Part shown: positions 14,489 through 26,923 of the stretch, piece after piece
Layout of the letters: each line of letters begins with the position of its first letter
Position numbering within the stretch: the stretch's first letter is position 1
The notes under the pieces: model-generated
The model's input: the letters and a program-made list of their open reading frames with translations, nothing else
Databases searched by the model: none
What the model was told of the DNA's origin: nothing
Origin: Thermodesulfobacteriota bacterium
GTDB lineage: Bacteria > Desulfobacterota_D > UBA1144 > Nemesobacterales > JAJCZQ01
Length of the DNA stretch: 64,000 nucleotides
Reading direction: 5' to 3'
Assembly: GCA_965215275.1 (NCBI GenBank)
Contig: OZ244044.1
Span: 1,600,001 to 1,664,000, forward strand
Position numbers and translations under genes: made by a program

Positions 14489-14792
14489 CAATGAGGTCCT
14501 TTCAAAGGCATTGAACTGACTGATATCTTTCCCGTCAGAATACCTGCTGGCTGCTTACGGAAAAAGAAACGGTATCTCTCCGTTAAAGTCCTGTTTTTTT
14601 GTCTTCAATGTTCTTATTACCTCAAAGGTCTGACTACAAGGTCTTTCACCCGATATGAATATGCGCCTGTTAAAAACGTCTTTTTTATTCATTTGGAGTA
14701 GTTCCTGTATAATTCCCTAATATTTTTAATTAGCTTCTATGGTTTATACAGGAATAGCTGTTATACTATATAAACTTGTAACGGAGAAAACA

Positions 14793-16443: not shown

Positions 16444-16479
16444 GCCTTCTCCCTTTATAAAATGAATACTTTTAAGATA

Positions 16480-16612
16480 GGGAATTATATACTGAATTAG
16501 ACATGATCAGCATACTGTTCTGCAAGCAGGTTTCCTCTAACCCTGTAACCTTTTGGCACTAACGAGTACTCAGCTTGCATCGGGAGACTTTCGTCCTTAT
16601 TCCCACCCGATA
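16480..16612 (-). ncRNA. Predicted omegaRNA scaffold of element A
   Basis: AUCGGG/CCCGAU stem, GAC-GAAA-GUC hairpin, UGCAAGC/GCUUGCA stem, terminal hairpin with the TIR; covaries with B and C; 5' end uncertain. Confidence 0.7.
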
Positions 16613-17954
16613 AAGAGGATAAACCTCTTTTAAGCATGTTCTTCGCAGCATTTGTATCAGCATGTTCCGTATGAGCACAGAAAATACCGACGCATTTAAA
16701 CAGCTCTCCTTTTCTATTTTCTTTATCTATCCATCCACAACGAGAACAGGTTTGTGACGTGTATTGAGCAGGTATCTTATGCAACTTGCCACCAGTGCTT
16801 AAAACCTTGTAATCAAGCTGATTAACAACCTTACCCAATTGCTGTTCTATTAAGGACCTGTTTAATCCTGATTTCTGCTTAATATTCTTACCAGGATCTT
16901 CCACAGTTCCTTTTGCAGATTTAGTCATATTCTTTAATTTTAAATCTTCCGCCATAATGAAATTATGCTTCCTTGAAAGTTCAGTAGTTATTTCGTGTAT
17001 CATGTAATGTTCTCTTTCTGCGACCCTTGCATATTCTTTTGCAAGTATTTGAACTTTCTTCTTTCTGCTGGCAGAACCTTTTACAGCTCTTGAAAGAATC
17101 TTTTGCTTTCTTTTAAGTTCTTTTCTATCCGTTTTTATACCTTTATAAAATGATCCATCTGATAAAGCGATCCTGTTATTTACTCCAAGATCTATCCCTA
17201 TCGGTCTGTCCATACCTCTGTCAACCCCAACTATCGCTTCATAAATAAACTGAATTTCTACTCTTAAAGCCGTTTGCACTATCCTTATATATCTTGTTCC
17301 TTCAGGTATCCTTCCCTTGAAGGAAACCCTGCCAATTCCTTTTATATACAACGAAGTCCTTCTTTCCTGCTTTCTGATCTTGCTTAACAGACGAGTTTCA
17401 AACGACCTGACCTTTCTGGAACTCTTCTTAAATCTCGGATGTCCACCTCGACTGAAAAACCTGTCATACGCACTATCTAATCTTTTTAAAACGGACAATT
17501 GAATCTGACGAAGAACTTTATTAAAAACAGGTTCTTCTTCTCTTATTTCAGTTAATGATTTTGATTGATCCTCATAACTGACCGACTTCTTTTTTAAATC
17601 TTCTTCAGGTAACATCTTCCAGTTTAAAGGATCATCACAAGGTTGAATGTCACTTTTAACACTATTCAACGCTTTATAAACAATGTTCAAATTCTTAACG
17701 GTATTTCCCTTATTATAAGAAATACCCGACTTCCAGTGTGGATAGAAATAAACCCTTAATCTATCTTCTGACAAACCCCATCTCTTCAGCTTCTTGTATT
17801 TTTCATATGCTTCCTTTCTTTCTTCTAAAGCACAGTTATACAAATAAGTTAATTGATCTAAAGTCCTGTCCAGACCTTCATGAGCAGATATATTCAACCC
17901 AGCCGCTCTACGGTCTGTTCTCATCTGTTTTATAATTTTAGTTTCACTATCCAT
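16497..17954 (-). CDS. tnpB: RNA-guided endonuclease TnpB (element A)
   Basis: RuvC GIDLG / AEDL / ADTNAA; Zn finger [30 protein letters not shown] motif. Confidence 0.93.
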
Positions 17955-18122
17955 CGTCTACAACACAACAACCGATCTATTAACTGCTTTCAAATTCGTC
18001 TCCTGTCTAATTAAGTATATAATTCCCTTAAGATATTATAATTGGGAATAATATACTTTAGTAAACAAAAGACAGGCAAATAGCTTTGATAGTGCTGTAA
18101 AATTAGGGAATTATATATAGAT

Positions 18123-19577
18123 ATGGATAGTGAAGGAAGTGTGATCAGAAAGACGAGAGTAGACCTCAGGGCGGTTAAGTTGGATCCGTCTGCTCATAAG
18201 AAACTGGAATCTATGTTAAACCAGCTTACCTATCTTTATAACCGAGCTCGTGAAGAAAGGATAAGATCATATGATAAATATGAGAAACTGATGAAATGGG
18301 GTTTATCAGAAAAGAGATTTAAGACGTATTTCTATCCCCACTGGAAGTCTGGACTTTCTTATAATAAAGGTAATACAGTTAAACATATAGACAAGGTATA
18401 TATAGCTCTTAACAGGGTTAGAAGTGAAGTCCGACCTTGTAACGACCCGTTAAACTGGAGAGAGTTATCAGAAAAAGAAATAGGAAAGAAGTCGATCAGT
18501 TACGAAGATCAGGCAAGATCACTGACGGAAATAAGGAACGACCTTTTACTGTCTGATGAGTTTAGTAAGGTTGACGCTCAAGCGCAACAGCGGACGTTAC
18601 AAAGACTGGATAAGGCTTATAAAGAATATCTAAAAGGGATACGTGGTCGTCCGAGATATAAGAACAGTAGCAGAAAGATAAAAAGTTTTGAAACTTACCA
18701 ATGGAGTAGAGTTAAGAAACAAGACAGAAGAACTTCCTTGTCCGTAAAAGGAGCAGGCAGGATGAGTTTCAAAGGCAGGATACCGGAAGGAACTAAATAC
18801 ATAAGGATAGTAAGAACTGCTTTAAGAGTAGAGATACAGTTTGTATATGAAACAGTTGCAGGAGTGGACAGAGGGTCAGACAGACCGATAGGGATAGATC
18901 TCGGAGTGAAGAACAGAATTACCTTATCGGATGGAACTTTCTATAAAGGAACAGAAATAGACAGGAAGGAACTTAAAAGAAAGCAAAGAGCAATAAGCAG
19001 AGCTGAAAAAGGTTCTAACAACAGAAACAAGAAGAAAACAGCTTATGCCAAAGAACGTGCAAGGACCACTGAAAGGGAACATAATAAAATACATGAATTA
19101 ACTACAGGGATAGTAAAGGGTCATGGTAATCATTTTATAGTAGAAGATCTGAAGTTAAAGAACATGACAAAGTCCGCTAAGGGGACCGTGAAAGATCCTG
19201 GCAAGAAAGTAAAGCAGAAATCGGGATTGAACAGGTCTATACAGGAGCAGCAATTGGGAAAGGTCATTAGTCAGCTTACTTACAAGGTTGAGAGCACTGG
19301 AGGTAAGATAATAAGAGTTCCATCCCGATACACAAGCCAGACCTGTTCTGCATGCGGATATGCAGCTAAAAAGAACAGAAAAGGAGAGTTATTTAAGTGC
19401 ATGTCCTGTGGTTATAAAGGCCATGCTGACTTAAACGCAGCTAATAACGTTCTCAAAAGAGGTTTATTCTTTTTGTCGGGTGGGAATAAGGACGAGAGTC
19501 TCCCGGTGCAAGCTGGGAACGTTATATCAAAAGAGAACGGGGTCAGAGGGACTCTGCTTGCAGAACAGTATATTTAG
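18123..19577 (+). CDS. tnpB: RNA-guided endonuclease TnpB (element B)
   Basis: GIDLG / VEDL / ADLNAA; CSAC..CMSC; clear paralog of the element A protein. Confidence 0.93.
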   Translation: MDSEGSVIRKTRVDLRAVKLDPSAHKKLESMLNQLTYLYNRAREERIRSYDKYEKLMKWGLSEKRFKTYFYPHWKSGLSYNKGNTVKHIDKVYIALNRVRSEVRPCNDPLNWRELSEKEIGKKSISYEDQARSLTEIRNDLLLSDEFSKVDAQAQQRTLQRLDKAYKEYLKGIRGRPRYKNSSRKIKSFETYQWSRVKKQDRRTSLSVKGAGRMSFKGRIPEGTKYIRIVRTALRVEIQFVYETVAGVDRGSDRPIGIDLGVKNRITLSDGTFYKGTEIDRKELKRKQRAISRAEKGSNNRNKKKTAYAKERARTTEREHNKIHELTTGIVKGHGNHFIVEDLKLKNMTKSAKGTVKDPGKKVKQKSGLNRSIQEQQLGKVISQLTYKVESTGGKIIRVPSRYTSQTCSACGYAAKKNRKGELFKCMSCGYKGHADLNAANNVLKRGLFFLSGGNKDESLPVQAGNVISKENGVRGTLLAEQYI

Positions 19578-19604
19578 TATTTGTTTACTAAATGTATAAT
19601 TCCC
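19475..19604 (+). ncRNA. Predicted omegaRNA scaffold of element B
   Basis: GUCGGG/CCCGGU, GAC-GAGA-GUC, UGCAAGC/GCUUGCA, and 12-bp terminal hairpin GUAUAUUUAGUA/UACUAAAUGUAU. Confidence 0.7.
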
Positions 19605-19656
19605 TTATAGTTTGTGTATCATATAAAAGAAATTAAATTATATTTCAGGAGTCGTT

Positions 19657-19866
19657 ATGGCAAGAGTAACCATAGAAGATTGTTTGGAAAAAGTGGAAAA
19701 CCGCTTTGCACTTTCGGTAGCAGCTATGAAAAGGGCAAAACAGGTGGTTAATGGTGCAATGCCTCTGGCATCGGAAAAAGATAATAAACACGTCGTTATT
19801 GCTCTCAGGGAGATAGCAGAAGGGAAAGTCAACGTGATCTATCCTGATGCACCTGGAAAATATTAG
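19657..19866 (+). CDS. rpoZ: RNA polymerase omega subunit
   Basis: [17 protein letters not shown]...[10 protein letters not shown]. Confidence 0.96.
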
Positions 19867-19890
19867 AGCTACTTACCTGATCTATATAAG

Positions 19891-21867
19891 ATGTACCTTC
19901 TAGGTATCGACACGGGCGGGACCTTTACCGACTTTGTGCTTTATGACGGAAAAGATTATAAGGTCCATAAGATCTCCTCAACGCCTGATGACCCTTCCAC
20001 GGCTATATGTGACGGGGTTAATTACTTCAATGAAGTTTCGTTTCGGTATCTGACCTTAGTTCATGGGACAACCGTTGCAACGAACACCCTCCTTGAACGA
20101 AAAGGTGCCAGGGTACTGCTGTTGACCACTAAGGGTTTTGAAGACGTTATTGAGATCGGCAGACAGAACCGCGGTAAACTATACGATCTTTTCTGGACGA
20201 AAAAACCTGCCTTAGTACCGAAACGGGACAGGATAGGTATATCCGAAAGGGTTAATTCCAAAGGTATGGTCTTAAAGGAATTAGACGGTGATGAAGTACG
20301 CACGCTTATGCAAAGTTCAAACTTTGAGGAATTTGAAGCGGTTGCCGTCTGCTTTATTAACTCTTACGTTAATCCTGTACATGAGATCAAAGTTCAGAAC
20401 GTTCTAAGTTCCCTGGATATCCCGGTTTCAATATCGTACGAGGTTATACCTGAATTCAGGGAATATGAACGAACTTCAACCACCGTGGTGAATTCATATC
20501 TCATTCCCAAGGTCAGGGGATATATGCATTCCCTGAACAAAAAACTAAAAGGGGCGGGTATTTACGTTATGCAGTCGAACGGAGGCGTTATAACCCCCGA
20601 GCAGGCGGCAAATGAACCGGTAAAGGTAATTGCCTCGGGTCCGGCTGGCGGAGTGGTCGGGGCTTACAAGATCGCCCGTCAGACAGGGATCGATAAGGTA
20701 ATAACTTACGACATGGGGGGAACTTCCACGGACCTTTCCGTGTGTGATGGTGAATTGAAGTTTACAACGGAGACCGTAATTGATGATGTCCCGATAAAGA
20801 TCCCAATGATGGACATTCTTACCATCGGATCGGGTGGAGGGTCAATTGCGTACGCGGATTCCGGAGGGGTATTGAAAGTAGGGCCTGAAAGTGCAGGTGC
20901 AGACCCGGGACCAGCGTGCTATGGAAAGGGAAAATATCCTACGGTAACCGATGCAAACCTTATGCTTGGAAGAATGCAGGCAGAGAATTTTCTGGGTGGC
21001 AGGATGAAGGTCGACCCCAAGCTGTCAGAAAGTTCCATCAAGACCTTAAACAACGGTTTTGGAATTGATCCCCTTAAACTGGCCGAGATGATAATAAAAG
21101 TTGCAAATTCCAACATGGAACGTGCTGTTAAGGTCATTTCGGTCGAGAAAGGATACGACCCCAGGGAGTTCTCGCTCATCAGTTTCGGTGGGGCAGGGGG
21201 ATTACATGCCTGCGAATTGGCAAGGAGCATCGGCCTTAAAAGAGTGATATTTCCGGTTAACCCGGGAGTTCTTTCTGCGCTGGGTATGCTGTTTGCCGAT
21301 TCGTTCAAAGATTACAGTAAAGGGTTTTTTCTGAACTGTAAGGACGCGGACCTCAGCGTACTTGAACTCCAGTATGGTGAACTGGAGCAGAAAGCGGTCA
21401 GGGATATTCAAGGCGTGGAACAAAACGCTTCATGTTCAAAGGAAGATACAGAGTTTTTAAGGTCAATGGACGTCCGATATAAAAGACAGTCACATGAGCT
21501 GACAATTCCGTACAGCCGTGACTTCATAGATGATTTTCATAAAAAGCATCTCAAAAGGTACGGTTTTAACGGCGTTGATAACGCTGTTGAAATAGTGGCG
21601 TTAAGGGTCCGTGCCGTGATCAGCCGTTCCGTGTTCGAGCTGCCTGAGCTGAAAACAAAAAGATCGGAAATTACAGGAACTGGTTCTCTGGTCTATATAA
21701 ATGGTGAATGGACCGATATAGTTCGTTATGACAGGAGCCGGTTTTATAACGGCTTTGTTTTTAAAGGGCCTTCGATCATTAACGAGGATACGTCAACTAT
21801 TTTCATACCTGAAGGTTTCAGATGCGTTGTGGACCGGTTTGGAAATATAGTTTCAGAAGGGTGTTGA
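19891..21867 (+). CDS. Hydantoinase A/5-oxoprolinase family protein
   Basis: GIDTGGTFTD, HGTTVATN, SGPAGG, DMGGTSTD, GPESAGADPGPACYG. Confidence 0.92.
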   Translation: MYLLGIDTGGTFTDFVLYDGKDYKVHKISSTPDDPSTAICDGVNYFNEVSFRYLTLVHGTTVATNTLLERKGARVLLLTTKGFEDVIEIGRQNRGKLYDLFWTKKPALVPKRDRIGISERVNSKGMVLKELDGDEVRTLMQSSNFEEFEAVAVCFINSYVNPVHEIKVQNVLSSLDIPVSISYEVIPEFREYERTSTTVVNSYLIPKVRGYMHSLNKKLKGAGIYVMQSNGGVITPEQAANEPVKVIASGPAGGVVGAYKIARQTGIDKVITYDMGGTSTDLSVCDGELKFTTETVIDDVPIKIPMMDILTIGSGGGSIAYADSGGVLKVGPESAGADPGPACYGKGKYPTVTDANLMLGRMQAENFLGGRMKVDPKLSESSIKTLNNGFGIDPLKLAEMIIKVANSNMERAVKVISVEKGYDPREFSLISFGGAGGLHACELARSIGLKRVIFPVNPGVLSALGMLFADSFKDYSKGFFLNCKDADLSVLELQYGELEQKAVRDIQGVEQNASCSKEDTEFLRSMDVRYKRQSHELTIPYSRDFIDDFHKKHLKRYGFNGVDNAVEIVALRVRAVISRSVFELPELKTKRSEITGTGSLVYINGEWTDIVRYDRSRFYNGFVFKGPSIINEDTSTIFIPEGFRCVVDRFGNIVSEGC

Positions 21868-21878
21868 GGTTTACCATA

Positions 21879-23186
21879 ATGTCCAAAAATATCATTATAG
21901 GTGGTGGTGTGACGGGGCTTGCCGCGGGTCTGACCTCAGACGTTAAGATATATGAAGCAAAACAGGTTCCCGGAGGTATCTGCTCGTCGTATTATATCCG
22001 TCCCGGTGATAAGCGACCTGAGGCTGCACAACCTGAAGATCAAGAAGCCTACAGGTTCGAGTTAGGTGGTGGACACTGGATCTTTGGTGGAAAGCCCAAA
22101 GTATTGGATTTTATAAGATCACTGACCCCGGTAAAAGAATATACAAGAAAGTCCTCGGTTTACTTCCCGGATACGGAGTTGTATGTTCCGTATCCAATTC
22201 AGAACAATTTGAGATACTTAGGTAAAGACGTGGCAGACAGGGTGTTAGCGGAGATCAGGAACTCTACTGATATGATACCAGACACTATGGAGCAGTGGCT
22301 TGAAAAAAGCTTCGGAAAGACACTTGTAAAGATGTTCTTTGGTCCGTTCCATGAGCTGTATACCGCGGGGCTCTGGACAAGGATCGCACCCCAGGACGCT
22401 TATAAATCTCCCGTGAACGTTGAAGCGGTTAAAAAAGGTGCTTATGGAGACAGGACGGACGCTGTGGGTTACAACGTTAAGTATCTGTACCCTTCAGAGG
22501 GACTTGATGTCCTTGCAGGTAAAATGGCGGGAAGATGTAATATCTCATACGACAAGAAGGTTGAGGAAATAAATCTGGATAAAAAAGAAGTACTTTTTTC
22601 AGATGGGTCAGGAGACAGATACGATAGACTTTTATCAACTCTGCCGCTGAACAAGGCACTGGACTGTTCAGGTCTTACCGTTGATGAATACCGTGATGAC
22701 TACACCTCCGTCCTGGTCCTTAATATCGGTGCTACAAGAGGTGACAGATGTCCTGATGATCACTGGATATACGTGCCTGACAGCAGGTCCAAGTTCCATA
22801 GAGTTGGTTTTTACAGTAACGTTGACAGTTCTTTCCTGCCATTATCGTCCAGAAAGGATATGGACAGGGTCAGTATTTATGTTGAAAGGGCATTTCCAAA
22901 CGGCAGGAAGCCCTCTGACAGTGAGATAAGTTCTTATTCCGGATCAGTAGTTGATGAGTTAAAGGACTGGAAGTTCATTGATGAAGCTGAGACCGTTCAT
23001 CCAACCTGGATAGAGGTTGCCTATACCTGGTCAAAGCCGGGTTCAAGCTGGAGAATGAAAGCATTGAACCTTCTTGCGAAGCAGAACGTCGTTCAGGCAG
23101 GCAGATACGGCAGGTGGAAGTTTCAGGGGATCGCGGAGTCCCTGGAAGATGGTTTTATGGCCGGTAATGATCATCTCTTGTCATGA
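21879..23186 (+). CDS. FAD-dependent oxidoreductase (protoporphyrinogen oxidase/UDP-galactopyranose mutase-like)
   Basis: IIGGGVTGLAAG Rossmann motif at ATG 21879; GGHW; GRYGRW; adjacent to glycan genes. Confidence 0.75.
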   Translation: MSKNIIIGGGVTGLAAGLTSDVKIYEAKQVPGGICSSYYIRPGDKRPEAAQPEDQEAYRFELGGGHWIFGGKPKVLDFIRSLTPVKEYTRKSSVYFPDTELYVPYPIQNNLRYLGKDVADRVLAEIRNSTDMIPDTMEQWLEKSFGKTLVKMFFGPFHELYTAGLWTRIAPQDAYKSPVNVEAVKKGAYGDRTDAVGYNVKYLYPSEGLDVLAGKMAGRCNISYDKKVEEINLDKKEVLFSDGSGDRYDRLLSTLPLNKALDCSGLTVDEYRDDYTSVLVLNIGATRGDRCPDDHWIYVPDSRSKFHRVGFYSNVDSSFLPLSSRKDMDRVSIYVERAFPNGRKPSDSEISSYSGSVVDELKDWKFIDEAETVHPTWIEVAYTWSKPGSSWRMKALNLLAKQNVVQAGRYGRWKFQGIAESLEDGFMAGNDHLLS

Positions 23187-23201
23187 AGTACTCAAGGCTG
23201 A

Positions 23202-24272
23202 TCAGCAAGCTATTATTTCCATCATTCGTTCAACCCTGTTCTTTAAGCTGTGGTCTTTCTTTATTCTTTTATATGAAGCCATGGCTATCTCTTCTCTTTC
23301 TTTTTCGTTCTTTAGGTAGTATTGCACTTTATCTCTCAGTTCTTTTTTATCTTTAAAAGTTATGATCTCTTCTCCTATCCTGAAATAATCCCCTATACTT
23401 TTTTTATCGTCCACGATCTGGAACGTTTTTGACGCGGGGATCTCAAAGAGTCGGTAATTCCCCCCGCTGACCTCAAATTCCCGATGGATATTGACCCCTA
23501 TTTTAGCTGACTTCATCACTTTTATCAGATCGTCACCATATACCACGCCTCTGTAGTTTGATCCAAGGGGCGTTTGATGATCACTGAAGTTCCAGCTCCA
23601 TATACCCAGTCCCAGGTCGGAGATATGTTCTAAAAAATTTTTTCTCCTTTCATCGTACATTCCCGAGAAACAGATATTGACCTTGTTGTCTTTAATAAAG
23701 TCACTGTCAGGATTAATTGAGTCATAGTAGGAAACGCTGCATCCAAGTGGTAATGTCTGCGTGTTTGTGATATTAAGTTCCTCTTCGTAGTATTTAACGT
23801 ATGATCTGTCATAAATAAAAGTGTGGTCGCAGTTTTTGAGTATTTTGTGTACGCCAGGCGACACTTTTGACGGATGTAATCCGAGCCATGTCACCACTTT
23901 TATCCCTTCTTTTTTAAGGTTTTTTATTAAACTTGATAAGTTATAGGTATTTATAAGATATATGAACAGTACGTCGGGGTTGAAGTCCTTTACCTCTTCT
24001 GAGATCTGCTGTGACAGATACAGATCATTTGGGTAATCAGCGATGAACCCGAAGTGTTTTCTGAATGTAAGATACTCTTCACTAAAGCTGTTTCTTATCG
24101 TCCTGTCTTTTCTTAAATGGTCTAACAGGACTGGCATCTTTGTATCGGTGGTTTGCAGTACCTTTACTTCATGTCCCAGACCTGCTGCCTCCCGGGACAG
24201 ATGAACCATATATGTACTTATAAAGAACGTTGTATCGTCAAACGTGATGGGAGCCGCGAAAAGAATTTTCAT
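23202..24272 (-). CDS. Glycosyltransferase, CgeB/YkvP-like GT-B
   Basis: KIGVNIH...NYRLFEIPA...F.IGEEI..F C-terminal domain. Confidence 0.8.
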   Translation of the reverse strand: MKILFAAPITFDDTTFFISTYMVHLSREAAGLGHEVKVLQTTDTKMPVLLDHLRKDRTIRNSFSEEYLTFRKHFGFIADYPNDLYLSQQISEEVKDFNPDVLFIYLINTYNLSSLIKNLKKEGIKVVTWLGLHPSKVSPGVHKILKNCDHTFIYDRSYVKYYEEELNITNTQTLPLGCSVSYYDSINPDSDFIKDNKVNICFSGMYDERRKNFLEHISDLGLGIWSWNFSDHQTPLGSNYRGVVYGDDLIKVMKSAKIGVNIHREFEVSGGNYRLFEIPASKTFQIVDDKKSIGDYFRIGEEIITFKDKKELRDKVQYYLKNEKEREEIAMASYKRIKKDHSLKNRVERMMEIIAC

Positions 24273-24457
24273 TAATTAACGTTGATCTCTTTCAGCTTTT
24301 TTTTTGTAAACAGGAAATACAGTCTTTCAAAAGCAACTAACAGATGGATGGTTATAAAAAAAGAGAGTGATAAGATGAACTTAAAACCATGTATGTATTT
24401 ATTTTTAGTGCTGCGACCTGAACGGTTCATATCCTTCATTATATGAATAGCAGACAA
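24272..24457 (-). CDS. Small hypothetical membrane protein or gene remnant
   Basis: Stop overlaps the start of the next gene (TAATG); one hydrophobic segment; start uncertain. Confidence 0.35.
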   Translation of the reverse strand: MSAIHIMKDMNRSGRSTKNKYIHGFKFILSLSFFITIHLLVAFERLYFLFTKKKLKEINVN

Positions 24458-24474
24458 GATCTTTTATAATATTA

Positions 24475-24637
24475 GGGAATAATATACTTTAGTAAACAAA
24501 AGACAAGCAAATAGCTTTGATAATACTGTAAAATTGGGGAATTATATATAAATATGAGAAACTGATAAAATGGGGTTTGTCAGAAAAAAAGGTTTAAGAC
24601 GTATTTCTACCCACACTGGAAGTCTGGGATTTCTTAC
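24475..24637 (+). pseudogene. Remnant of an element-B-like copy: left end plus deleted tnpB 5' fragment
   Basis: Near-identical to 18044-18125 joined to 18283-18361; no right end seen. Confidence 0.85.
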
Positions 24638-24686
24638 CATATAGCTGTTAAGGTTAAAATTCTCATTGCAATGCTTTGATAATTAA

Positions 24687-24817
24687 GGGAATTATAAAGG
24701 AAAGTTGACAAACTTACCCATACTGTTCTGAGTGCAGAGTTCCTCTATCCCTGTTCTCTTTTGATCTGATACTCTTAGCACTCATCGGGAGTATTTCTAC
24801 CTTATTCCCACCCGATA
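24687..24817 (-). ncRNA. Predicted omegaRNA scaffold of element C
   Basis: AUCGGG/CCCGAU, GUA-GAAA-UAC, UGAGUGC/GCACUCA; compensatory changes relative to A and B. Confidence 0.7.
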
Positions 24818-25937
24818 TGAAGTCTCCTTCATTAAGAGTATTGATATTTTTACCTGCATTTATATCCCTGTTTTCTGAATAACCGCAATATATACAGTTA
24901 AATACTCTTTCAGACAGAGGCAGTTTTGGATTTATCTTTCCGCATTCAGAACAGGCTCTTGTTGTATAATGAGCTTTAACTAAAACCAGCTTGCCTCCAG
25001 CTATCTCGGCTTTGTAGTCAAGTTGATGTTTGATCTTACCCCATTGCTGTTCTGTTATGGATTTAGCAAGATGATGGTTCTTTACCATTCCTTGTATATT
25101 CAAATCCTCTAATTTTATATGATTACACTTCTTTACTATATTGGTAGTCATTCTGTGTATAGCGTTATTTTCACGATCGGTAGTTCGTTCCCATTCCTTT
25201 GCTAACAATAAAACTTTCTTCTTTCTGCTGTCAGAACCTTTTACCGCTCTTGAAACAATTCTCTGCTTTCTTTTCAGTTCCTTCCTGTCTATCCTGATAC
25301 CGGGAACTTTAGTTCCATCTGAAAAAGCTAATCTGTTTGTTATTCCAAGATCTATCCCTATGGAATTATCCAAAGGTCTCTTCTTCTCATTTGTAAACTC
25401 ACACAGAAACTGGAGCTTAATTCTTAACGAACTCCTGATTATTCTTATTATTGTTTTAGGTTGCTTTAATACAACTCCGTCAGGTATAGAACCTTTGAAG
25501 GATAATCTGCCTATTCCCTTAACAGTTAAATATGTTCTTCTGCCTATCTTCTCAATGTTTTTATAATTGTTTGTTTCAAAACTCCTTACAGGTCTGTTTG
25601 GACCTTTATATTTAGGTCTGCCAACCTTCCTTACCTTCTTGCCTGCTTTCTTGTTCCTTAAATAGTTCAAATACGGTCTATATGCATTATCCAGTCTTTC
25701 CAGAACGCTTCTTTGAGCTGTAACATTAAACTTTTCAAATTCCTTGTCTTGCTCTCGGACCTCAGTTAGTTCGTTAAACTGTTCGTATTTAGAGATAGTT
25801 CTTCCATACCAATCCCAGGATTTTAACCTATGGTACAAGGCACTGTTATACAGATCGGTAAGCTGATTTAAGAATTTATCCAGCCTTTTATGAAAACCAC
25901 TATCTGCCTTTACAGTTCTTGTAATCGTTCTAACCAT
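24714..25937 (-). CDS. tnpB: RNA-guided endonuclease TnpB (element C)
   Basis: GIDLG / LEDLN / RDINAG; CSEC..CIYC; 407 aa. Confidence 0.93.
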   Translation of the reverse strand: MVRTITRTVKADSGFHKRLDKFLNQLTDLYNSALYHRLKSWDWYGRTISKYEQFNELTEVREQDKEFEKFNVTAQRSVLERLDNAYRPYLNYLRNKKAGKKVRKVGRPKYKGPNRPVRSFETNNYKNIEKIGRRTYLTVKGIGRLSFKGSIPDGVVLKQPKTIIRIIRSSLRIKLQFLCEFTNEKKRPLDNSIGIDLGITNRLAFSDGTKVPGIRIDRKELKRKQRIVSRAVKGSDSRKKKVLLLAKEWERTTDRENNAIHRMTTNIVKKCNHIKLEDLNIQGMVKNHHLAKSITEQQWGKIKHQLDYKAEIAGGKLVLVKAHYTTRACSECGKINPKLPLSERVFNCIYCGYSENRDINAGKNINTLNEGDFISGGNKVEILPMSAKSIRSKENRDRGTLHSEQYG

Positions 25938-25943
25938 TTAATA

Positions 25944-25972
25944 ACATTACCTTTTTATATTCTGTTTGTCAA
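25944..25972 (-). promoter_or_regulatory. Putative tnpB promoter in element C
   Basis: Minus strand TTGACA-17-TAATGT, 6 nt before the ATG. Confidence 0.45.
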
Positions 25973-26008
25973 TTTATTTTTGTCAACTTTTCTTTATAAT
26001 TCCCATAA

Positions 26009-26923
26009 TTAACAGTTTCTGGGTTCAAAACCGAGCAGCAGCCTGAAGCTCTCATACACCCGAACGTAATTAAGTAAAACACGAATAATAACAATTTTTA
26101 ATTTGTTACCGTTTCTTTTGATTTTTGGACTTACATAATTGTGATTTTTTAATGGTTTCCGGATATATGTGACAGGGAGTAAATTCGATAAGGTTAGACG
26201 AAACCAGAATAATGATGAATATCCCCTTTTTTTATAATAAAGATATTCTCCCCCGGTAATCCTTAAATTTTTTCTTATTAAGTCCTTTAAAGTATTATGT
26301 GCAGGATGCTTTACAATCACGTTTCTTCCATAAATGATCTTGGAGCCTGTGATAATAGCCCTGTCTCCCCATTCTCTGTCGCCGCCGCTTCTGAATGAAC
26401 CATCAAAAATTCCAACGTCTGATAGCGTGGATTTAGAGGTAAATAAATTTGCTGTTACAGAAAAATTTAACTTGTTAATAAATCTCTCCTGGTTGAACGC
26501 AAACAGCATTTCATATTGTTCAACTGCGTTCAGATGGTCCTTGTTTTTATATGTTAATTCGATCCTGCCACCAACAACGCCATAGTAGTTGAGTATTTTT
26601 AAATTGTTTACTCCCGTTTCTATCCAGTTCGGGTAGGGTATGCAATCTGAATCAGTGAAGGCAATAATACTTCCTTTTGCTTGTTGTAATCCTTTGTTTC
26701 TGGCGGCATAGGAACCGCTTTTTTGTTCTTTAAGCAGGATTATCTTGTATAATGATTTTAACTTGAGCAGTTTTTTCCAGTGAAATTCGCTTGAATCATT
26801 ATCAACAACTATTACTTCATACAGTCTTTTATCATAACTTTGATCGTTAAGTGACTTTAGGCACAGACCTAATCTGTCAGAGTCGTTCAAATGTGGAATT
26901 ATTACTGAAACAAATTTCTTCAT
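26009..26923 (-). CDS. Glycosyltransferase family 2
   Basis: VSVIIP, VVDNDS, AARNKG, FTDSDC; AT-rich relative to neighbours. Confidence 0.9.
   Translation of the reverse strand: MKKFVSVIIPHLNDSDRLGLCLKSLNDQSYDKRLYEVIVVDNDSSEFHWKKLLKLKSLYKIILLKEQKSGSYAARNKGLQQAKGSIIAFTDSDCIPYPNWIETGVNNLKILNYYGVVGGRIELTYKNKDHLNAVEQYEMLFAFNQERFINKLNFSVTANLFTSKSTLSDVGIFDGSFRSGGDREWGDRAIITGSKIIYGRNVIVKHPAHNTLKDLIRKNLRITGGEYLYYKKRGYSSLFWFRLTLSNLLPVTYIRKPLKNHNYVSPKIKRNGNKLKIVIIRVLLNYVRVYESFRLLLGFEPRNC

Follow-up and report, generated by a model that had tools for sequence, protein, structure and literature searches.

How does a TnpB nuclease come to lie between terminal inverted repeats (TIRs) and duplicated target bases? 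Elements of the IS200/IS605 (HUH TnpA) and IS607 (serine recombinase) types have neither TIRs nor target duplications. The question is raised by a stretch of 64,000 nucleotides (positions 1,600,001 to 1,664,000 of contig OZ244044.1, assembly GCA_965215275.1) from a Thermodesulfobacteriota bacterium, referred to here as the window, in which three tnpB genes each occupy an element of their own, denoted A, B and C. An earlier note on this DNA had described these elements as bounded by TIRs and 8-bp repeats, and when the window sequence was re-read, the three elements, their TIR starts, their repeats and their coordinates were all found as claimed. We propose that A–C are non-autonomous IS1595-type elements that are likely mobilised in trans by IS1595 transposases of the same genome. 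The elements and their flanking duplications are as follows.

16480-18027, minus strand: element A, a putative non-autonomous IS1595-type cassette of 1548 bp, TIRs 23/24 alike, missing from the empty allele
18044-19604, plus strand: element B, a cassette of the same putative type, 1561 bp, with a TIR pair, duplications and an empty allele
24687-26004, minus strand: element C, a cassette of the same putative type, 1318 bp, TIRs 23/24 alike
16472-16479, unstranded: tnpB 3'-side copy of the A target duplication, TTAAGATA, presumed start of the predicted A guide
18028-18035, unstranded: tnpB 5'-side copy of the A target duplication, TTAAGATA
18036-18043, unstranded: B target duplication, 5' copy, TTATAATT
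19605-19612, unstranded: B target duplication, 3' copy, TTATAGTT, where the B guide is predicted to begin
24679-24686, unstranded: tnpB 3'-side copy of the C target duplication, ATAATTAA, where the C guide is predicted to begin
26005-26012, unstranded: tnpB 5'-side copy of the C target duplication, ATAATTAA, with a G directly outside on the tnpB strand (candidate target-adjacent motif, TAM)

The TIRs of all three elements begin GGGAAT(T/A)ATA, and an 8-bp repeat flanks each element on both sides. The B TIRs are only 15/24 alike when compared ungapped, because some bases are missing from the right TIR. The terminal 10-mer occurs ten times in the window, compared to 0.48 occurrences expected, a count that was reached by none of 100 shuffles.

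Each element contains one long open reading frame (ORF), which encodes a TnpB, and no transposase gene was found inside A, B or C, in agreement with the earlier note.

16497-17954, minus strand: tnpB of A, 485 aa, zinc finger, RuvC D255/E336/D433, identified by profile matches
18123-19577, plus strand: tnpB of B, 484 aa, zinc finger, RuvC D259/E341/D436, identified by profile matches
24714-25937, minus strand: tnpB of C, 407 aa, zinc finger, RuvC D196/E277/D358, identified by profile matches

The three proteins matched Pfam PF07282 and PF01385 and NCBIfam NF040570 (167-201 bits, cut-off 100), and scored below the IS200- and IS607-specific NCBIfam cut-offs. The four zinc-finger cysteines and the RuvC D-E-D residues, said in the note to be retained, could be located in all of them. 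The catalytic glutamate lies 52-67 residues ahead of the first zinc-finger cysteine, which places A, B and C outside the Fanzor/pro-Fanzor type, defined by a catalytic glutamate six residues ahead of the zinc finger. The TnpBs of A, B and a further family, B2 (see below), carry an insertion of about 75 residues in their N-terminal part (window 17560-17830 and 18250-18500) that is absent from C. An AlphaFold model of B had a mean predicted local distance difference test (pLDDT) score of 50, with only the RuvC part at about 70-85, and was too poor to place this insertion; the nearest solved structures were the ISDra2-type TnpB entries 8bf8 and 8h1j.

Empty sites with a single 8-mer were found for the A+B site, as the note had suggested looking for. 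A contig from run X7, which belongs to another study, joins position 16479 straight to 19605, skipping A and B exactly and retaining one copy of each 8-mer. Both flanks of the site are also joined in the sister species (G001), with the B 8-mer present once. The 8-bp repeats of A and B are thus true target duplications, because both of these empty junctions keep single copies. Mutation of the 5' copy of the B duplication was rejected as an explanation, since G001 holds the 5' version. In three further genomes of the family, the genes that flank the A+B site lie side by side. No empty allele was obtained for C, nor for the other C- and D-family copies.

The genome (G000) is represented by one contig of 1.99 Mb and is 99.87% complete. 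A tblastn search of it returned 25 clusters, with 19 near-full-length tnpB elements and 7 fragments. TIR pairs enclose all 19 near-full-length loci, which fall into five families: A (n = 1), B (n = 3), B2 (n = 4), C (n = 8) and D (n = 3). The duplications are exact in 9/19 copies and near-exact (at most two mismatches) in 14/19, and the tnpB frame is intact in 16/19 and frameshifted in 3/19, with several relics besides. A search for IS1595 transposases, again a check proposed in the note, gave 28 matches to DDE_Tnp_IS1595 (PF12762) in the genome, and all six IS1595 transposases tested passed NF033547. Many of the transposases are enclosed by TIRs that carry the terminal motif of the tnpB elements and by 8-bp duplications, either alone or together with methylase-type passengers, and miniature inverted-repeat transposable elements (MITEs) and composite units occur too. 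The C-family ends are 23-24/26 alike to those of the IS1595 at G000:C1:1100815, and the D-family ends 23-25/26 alike to those of an IS1595 element with an intact transposase frame; G000:C1:1518013-1518993 is an intact IS1595 transposase that may suit the D ends. The TIRs of the tnpB elements may be of the ISNwi1 group, the label given to them in the earlier note. Passenger-carrying and non-autonomous derivatives of IS1595 are known as transporter insertion sequences (tIS) and mobile insertion cassettes (MIC).

No match to the Resolvase domain (PF00239) was present in G000, so that an IS607-type serine recombinase TnpA was not found there. Y1_Tnp gave one weak match (26 bits) in a single-copy, 274-aa frame (G000:C1:1883440-1883715, locus L011) that is unlike an IS605 TnpA. 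Counterparts of this protein occur in 5/5 genomes of genus g10, which belongs to another family of the same order, and it is possibly a domesticated HUH protein. Altogether, no TnpA of the IS605 or IS607 type was found in G000. The IS1595-type chassis claimed in the earlier note therefore stands, in view of the same terminal motif on IS1595 elements, the true duplications and the missing TnpA; its claim of one TnpB lineage does not, and is rejected by the tree described below.

Other passengers, MITEs and composite units are carried by the same ends, and tnpB might thus be carried along passively, as are the methylase and other passenger genes of IS1595 transporter elements here, and have no role for the element; the frameshifted copies (3/19) and the relics would be in keeping with this. 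We consider it very improbable. Over 27 pairs, the dN/dS of tnpB was 0.14-0.53, mostly about 0.2, and the gene is under purifying selection. It points to the same kind of end in all families, and 5-90 bases separate its stop codon from the right end. Such a fixed orientation speaks against passive cargo, as do the RNA structure at the right end only, the flank bias, and the layout shared by a group of 45 rows in the tree, all described below.

The 3' ends of the elements were folded as predicted omegaRNA scaffolds.

16480-16615, minus strand: predicted omegaRNA scaffold of A by folding, loop 16599-16604 complementary to the last six bases of the element
19470-19604, plus strand: predicted omegaRNA scaffold of B by folding, loop 19482-19487, terminal hairpin 19568-19597 formed by the TIR, pseudoknot strand 19599-19604
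24687-24820, minus strand: predicted omegaRNA scaffold of C by folding, loop 24804-24809

Compared to shuffles, whole-region folds had z-scores of -2.8 for B, -1.5 for A and -0.46 for C, the last being no better than the shuffles, and the predicted regions had no matches in Rfam. In an alignment of 34 clade I ends, the first stem has a loop that begins GGGAA(T) and is the complement of the final TIR bases, and the inner TIR constitutes the 3' arm of a terminal hairpin. The right end folds better than the mirrored left end in 45 of the 47 distinct ends (mean -8.2 vs -3.0 kcal/mol), while 18 IS1595/MITE controls gave -3.4 and -2.3 kcal/mol. Four of the six hairpin pairs show two-sided changes, with a covariation of 0.203 vs 0.102 for shuffled alignments, above all slid controls and reached by 0/500 shuffles, a test that overstates covariation, the sequences being related and also the source of the structure. 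In the pseudoknot, 88% of cells are paired and one pair has a two-sided change; in B2, GGGAA:TTCCC is switched to GGGAC:GTCCC. A pseudoknot of pre-guide bases with an upstream loop is part of the TnpB design described in the text of PMC10711439. The right TIR is thus predicted to be part of the guide-RNA scaffold, giving the last hairpin and the pseudoknot strand. We further predict that the scaffold ends at the TIR or one base beyond it, and that the guide consists of the duplication and flank. Guides predicted in this way had no match elsewhere in the genome in 14/19 cases, and one or two sites at two mismatches or fewer in 5/19. A guide RNA rebuilt around a borrowed end suggests that the cutter still helps the element to persist.

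The motif GAACAG is conserved 30-40 bases ahead of the element end in clade I, and the sequence beyond it varies. This arrangement would also be expected if an IS605-type tnpB unit had landed in an IS1595 MITE, with a scaffold that stops at GAACAG and an invariant part of the element end itself as the guide. Of the explanations considered here we find this the least probable: the variable stretch supplies the 5' arm of the hairpin, which covaries with the TIR; the end known from IS605-type relatives, a hairpin followed by TCAA, is lost; the loop matches the very last bases of the element; and the flank bias would be left unexplained.

OmegaRNA ends that are decayed or incomplete, and that lack a full tnpB, were seen at G000:C1:794444, 1484935, 1743187, 1790440, 1886978 and 1953757. 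Some of these ends could act as stand-alone guides.

When the insertions were read in tnpB orientation, a purine was found one base outside the 5' duplication in 37/38 intact insertions, compared to 21/38 on the mirror side (p = 2e-5), in a set in which some insertion sites may be shared by descent. The same purine was present in 5/5 metagenome insertions, in one further intact site and in one site with three mismatches; transposase-bearing IS1595 controls had a purine in 4/9 and 5/9 cases. In family C, the outside position is G in 7/8 copies vs 4/56 control ends, and GT occupies this place in 7/8 copies vs 0/56. In A, B and B2, the outside position is A in 8/8 copies vs 27/56 control ends. 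The first base of the 3' flank is T in 16/16 copies of families A–C and A in 3/3 D copies. From these flanks, the family-specific base beside the 5' duplication is likely the TAM.

The bias might instead reflect the target preference of the transposase subfamily that serves each cassette, with TnpB being active and its targeting uncoupled from the insertion site. The inner TIR differs from family to family, the transposase may do so as well, and same-subfamily controls with intact duplications are few. We nevertheless give this explanation only a small chance, as the near-identical TIRs make it hard to obtain a one-sided, tnpB-oriented bias from the transposase alone, transposase-bearing elements show no such bias, and two independent TnpB groups both have it.

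The explanation that we favor, with reasonable though far from complete confidence, is that the cassettes move by a borrowed IS1595 transposase, and that TnpB cuts the empty allele through a TAM at the duplication edge, repair from the filled copy then restoring or spreading the element, while insertions without a TAM are lost. The IS1595 transposase would bind the shared terminal motif and place the cassette in AT-rich sites by cuts staggered by 8 bp. The omegaRNA would begin inside the 3' end of tnpB and continue through the right TIR, which would supply its last hairpin and pseudoknot strand; with the RNA running through the right TIR, the guide would therefore be the 3' duplication and the flank that follows. 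The TAM would straddle the outer edge of the 5' duplication, reading approximately TG|T in C, WA|T in A, B and B2, and TA|A in D, and the scaffold may extend by one base into the 3' duplication. A filled site would be immune, since it offers a TAM with at most eight matching bases on one side and a full match without a TAM on the other. An empty site, arising by precise loss or present in DNA from an element-free strain, would be cut and converted. Insertions without a TAM would get no such help and be lost, leaving the one-sided bias observed.

Apart from the overstated covariation of the hairpin, several points weigh against this reading. The covariation of the pseudoknot is thin: pair 5 is broken in 5/34 rows and pair 6 in 14/34, and the GGG:CCC core is fixed by the TIR. 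The family motifs were read post hoc from 3 to 8 copies, and the G bias of clade I taken alone in other genomes (13/16 vs 7/16 on the mirror side) was not significant (p = 0.07). Five of the 19 G000 copies have no matching duplications, which reciprocal flank swaps within a TnpB family do not account for. The transposase is frameshifted in the IS1595 whose ends best match C, the A and B ends match transposase-bearing ends mainly over their outer part, and among 23 IS1595 loci examined in genus g10, such a TIR pair was present within 1.5 kb at only one. An element with both transposase and tnpB was not found, and a six-frame scan of the tnpB loci revealed no IS1595 gene; the partner enzyme is therefore assigned by its ends only. 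Finally, section 6.2 of a 2026 review (PMC13565253) points out that the donor break made by a DDE transposase is itself recombinogenic, which makes the gain from a TnpB less obvious.

The near-completeness of the bias allows another possibility, namely that TnpB or its ribonucleoprotein steers insertion by sampling TAMs and recruiting or orienting the IS1595 transpososome, so that the bias arises at integration rather than by later selection. The bias varies with the TnpB family and follows tnpB orientation, and recent, near-identical copies (dS 0.013) already show it. If selection alone were at work, almost every insertion would have to be lost, as GT is found in 7/8 C copies and at 0/56 control ends. 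A, B and B2 also carry the otherwise unexplained 75-aa insertion. The nuclease sites are intact, however, no physical link between the two enzymes was seen, and no element joins both genes; selection through homing accounts for the same data with known biology, and we hold steering to be unlikely. We are equally doubtful of its fullest form, in which IS1595 ends captured TnpB at least twice, the guide RNA was rebuilt around the TIR each time, and TnpB now sets both the site and the orientation of insertion by the borrowed transposase, beside its own TAM. If true, this would constitute a two-part, trans-acting partnership of nuclease and transposase, much smaller than any CRISPR-associated transposon (CAST).

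The spread of TIR-borne TnpBs was followed in other genomes. B was matched at E 1e-20 or better in 8 of the 41 genomes searched. In genus g10, the right TIR was present at 19/19 loci (17 called pairs and 2 by eye), with TIR-borne TnpBs at 35-44% protein identity; it was absent at 2 loci from other genera. Among the 42 best-matching of 80 loci taken from named genomes, the TIR was present in 27 (22 pairs and 5 right ends) and absent from 15, most of the latter ending in a hairpin and TCAA or TCAC, with six adjoining Y1 and one adjoining a serine TnpA. The generic TIR finder was noisy. Two loci, L096 and L102, were false TIR calls of the motif-anchored finder and were excluded from the TIR counts. 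A joint pattern of the RNA motif and the TIR was found in 15/120 genomes of the phylum, and the reversed control gave one hit.

In a FastTree phylogeny of 113 rows, 45 TIR rows, including A, B and C, formed a single group with 100% support. Their titles span four phyla (Thermodesulfobacteriota/Dadabacteria, Pseudomonadota, Chloroflexota and Latescibacterota); two Spirochaetia-titled rows nest within the Thermodesulfobacteriota/Dadabacteria rows and were left out of this count. Family D and ten g10 rows fall elsewhere, among IS605/IS607-type and viral rows. Forcing 15 TIR rows together in a 34-row subset was rejected by the approximately unbiased test (p-AU 3e-7), for a group that was named after the tree had been seen and that includes long branches. 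The single clade of TIR-flanked TnpBs that the earlier note had envisaged thus gives way to at least two separate groups, with A, B and C in the larger one, and since a single clade is rejected, IS1595-type ends appear to have taken up TnpB at least two times. A viral scan yielded 30 distant TnpBs (29-49%), 13 of them near-identical, which served as outgroups in the tree, and a plasmid search with a clade II protein had a best match of 38%.

The arrangement is not without precedent: the text of Altae-Tran et al. (2023; PMC10691335) describes six DDE-associated TnpB branches with TIRs (DDE-1 to DDE-6) as well as solo TnpBs between the same ends. As at our loci, these are prokaryotic TnpBs between TIRs, with their 3' end near the element end and with solo copies thought to be mobile in trans; unlike ours, which have no adjacent IS1595 gene, the branches are defined by an adjacent DDE gene. 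The main text names IS630, and IS1595 is absent from it, appearing once in a list of mobility hidden Markov models in the supporting information (SI). One of the branches could be IS1595. For DDE-5, an SI line mentions a TA motif that lies 8 bp upstream of its end, which could fit the TIRs seen here, although DDE-5 is listed among the catalytically rearranged, plasmid-rich branches. The review (PMC13565253), in its text, gives ISL2, IS630 and IS1031 as DDE partners and calls the pairing rare. Our literature searches found no paper naming IS1595 as a TnpB partner, the figure and data files of Altae-Tran et al. being outside this check.

Compared to IS1341-type IS200/IS605 and IS607 elements, A–C have the same nuclease family, an RNA that overlaps the tnpB 3' end and a guide predicted from the flank. 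The differences are that those elements have hairpin ends without duplication, as opposed to the TIRs and 8-bp duplications here, and that G000 has no matching TnpA and the target is not picked by TnpA pairing. The IS1595 family, as its description in PMC8101967 has it, features 8-bp duplications and a zinc-finger DDE transposase; the cassettes share with it TIRs of about 24-26 bp that begin GG, the 8-bp duplications, and ends common to the zinc-finger DDE elements of the genome, and differ in having no transposase and in carrying an RNA-guided nuclease, the predicted RNA of which uses the TIR. TIR-borne Fanzor1 and Fanzor2* (Yoon et al. 2023, PMC10711439), in which TIRs and duplications enter the RNA scaffold according to its text, resemble them in having the TIR in the RNA scaffold, duplication bases in the TAM and repeated DDE capture. 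A–C differ from these in their canonical TnpB active-site spacing, bacterial host and retained predicted pseudoknot, and their variable 8-bp duplication would fall mostly in the guide rather than the scaffold. The same texts (PMC10711439; PMC13565253, section 6.2) pose as an open question why prokaryotic TnpB keeps to IS200/IS605 and IS607, whereas Fanzors are carried by many different DDE transposons. A natural test of that question is offered by the present case, in which TnpB appears to have been taken up more than once by a bacterial DDE family whose duplication is long and variable. The elements also suggest a route of capture, by which the TIR became the predicted last RNA hairpin and pseudoknot strand, with a TAM that seems to straddle the duplication edge. 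What the window adds is an exact empty allele, evidence for repeated capture, and evidence, at the level of sequence, that points to a borrowed TIR becoming part of the RNA. One complete genome holds transposases, five tnpB cassette families, tnpB-free controls and an empty allele, and homing and TnpB-steered insertion should therefore be distinguishable. Censuses based on neighboring genes would class the solo cassettes as IS1341-like and miss them, and compact nucleases of 400-485 aa with short predicted TAMs are on offer.

Several further observations were made on the elements and their surroundings. Copies with TnpBs 96-98% identical differ in their inner TIRs at both ends, which suggests end replacement. 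Copies of the B family, both in the window (18106-18115) and at G000:C1:735945 and 1094941, hold a further TIR-like motif, 62 bases in from the left end. A and B duplications abut, and elements gather in AT-rich gaps; a B-family relic sits about 20 bases from the C duplication.

18106-18115, plus strand: second TIR-like motif, 62 bp inside the left end of B, common to the B family, possibly an older end
24475-24658, plus strand: B-family left-end relic with an internal deletion and no right end, 94% and 84% identical to B positions 1-82 and 223-340, respectively

IS1595 elements of 2.5-3.4 kb with passenger ORFs resembling DNA methylases and restriction-type genes are located at G000:C1:675417, 1002026, 1304051, 1516018, 1537614 and 1812584. 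Pairs of 420-450 bp MITEs with C-like TIRs enclose host genes at G000:C1:17470-21955 and 1898058-1900957, and the former unit has an exact 8-bp duplication, as a composite transposon. A Mutator-family (IS256-type) transposase gene is inserted in a TIR-tnpB cassette (L106:1561-2958); it was rejected as a partner enzyme, as it interrupts the cassette and is thus an insertion. At locus L018 (G019:C4), a tnpB (548-1753) related to the second TIR group and lacking a TIR is followed directly, at about 530-380 on the minus strand, by 2.7 copies of a CRISPR-like repeat of 36-39 bases with two spacers of 27-30 bases, possibly a nascent type V system or an orphan array. Lastly, an unpaired TIR end of another IS1595-type unit lies at 14708-14717 in the window, directly upstream of two small zinc-ribbon ORFs.

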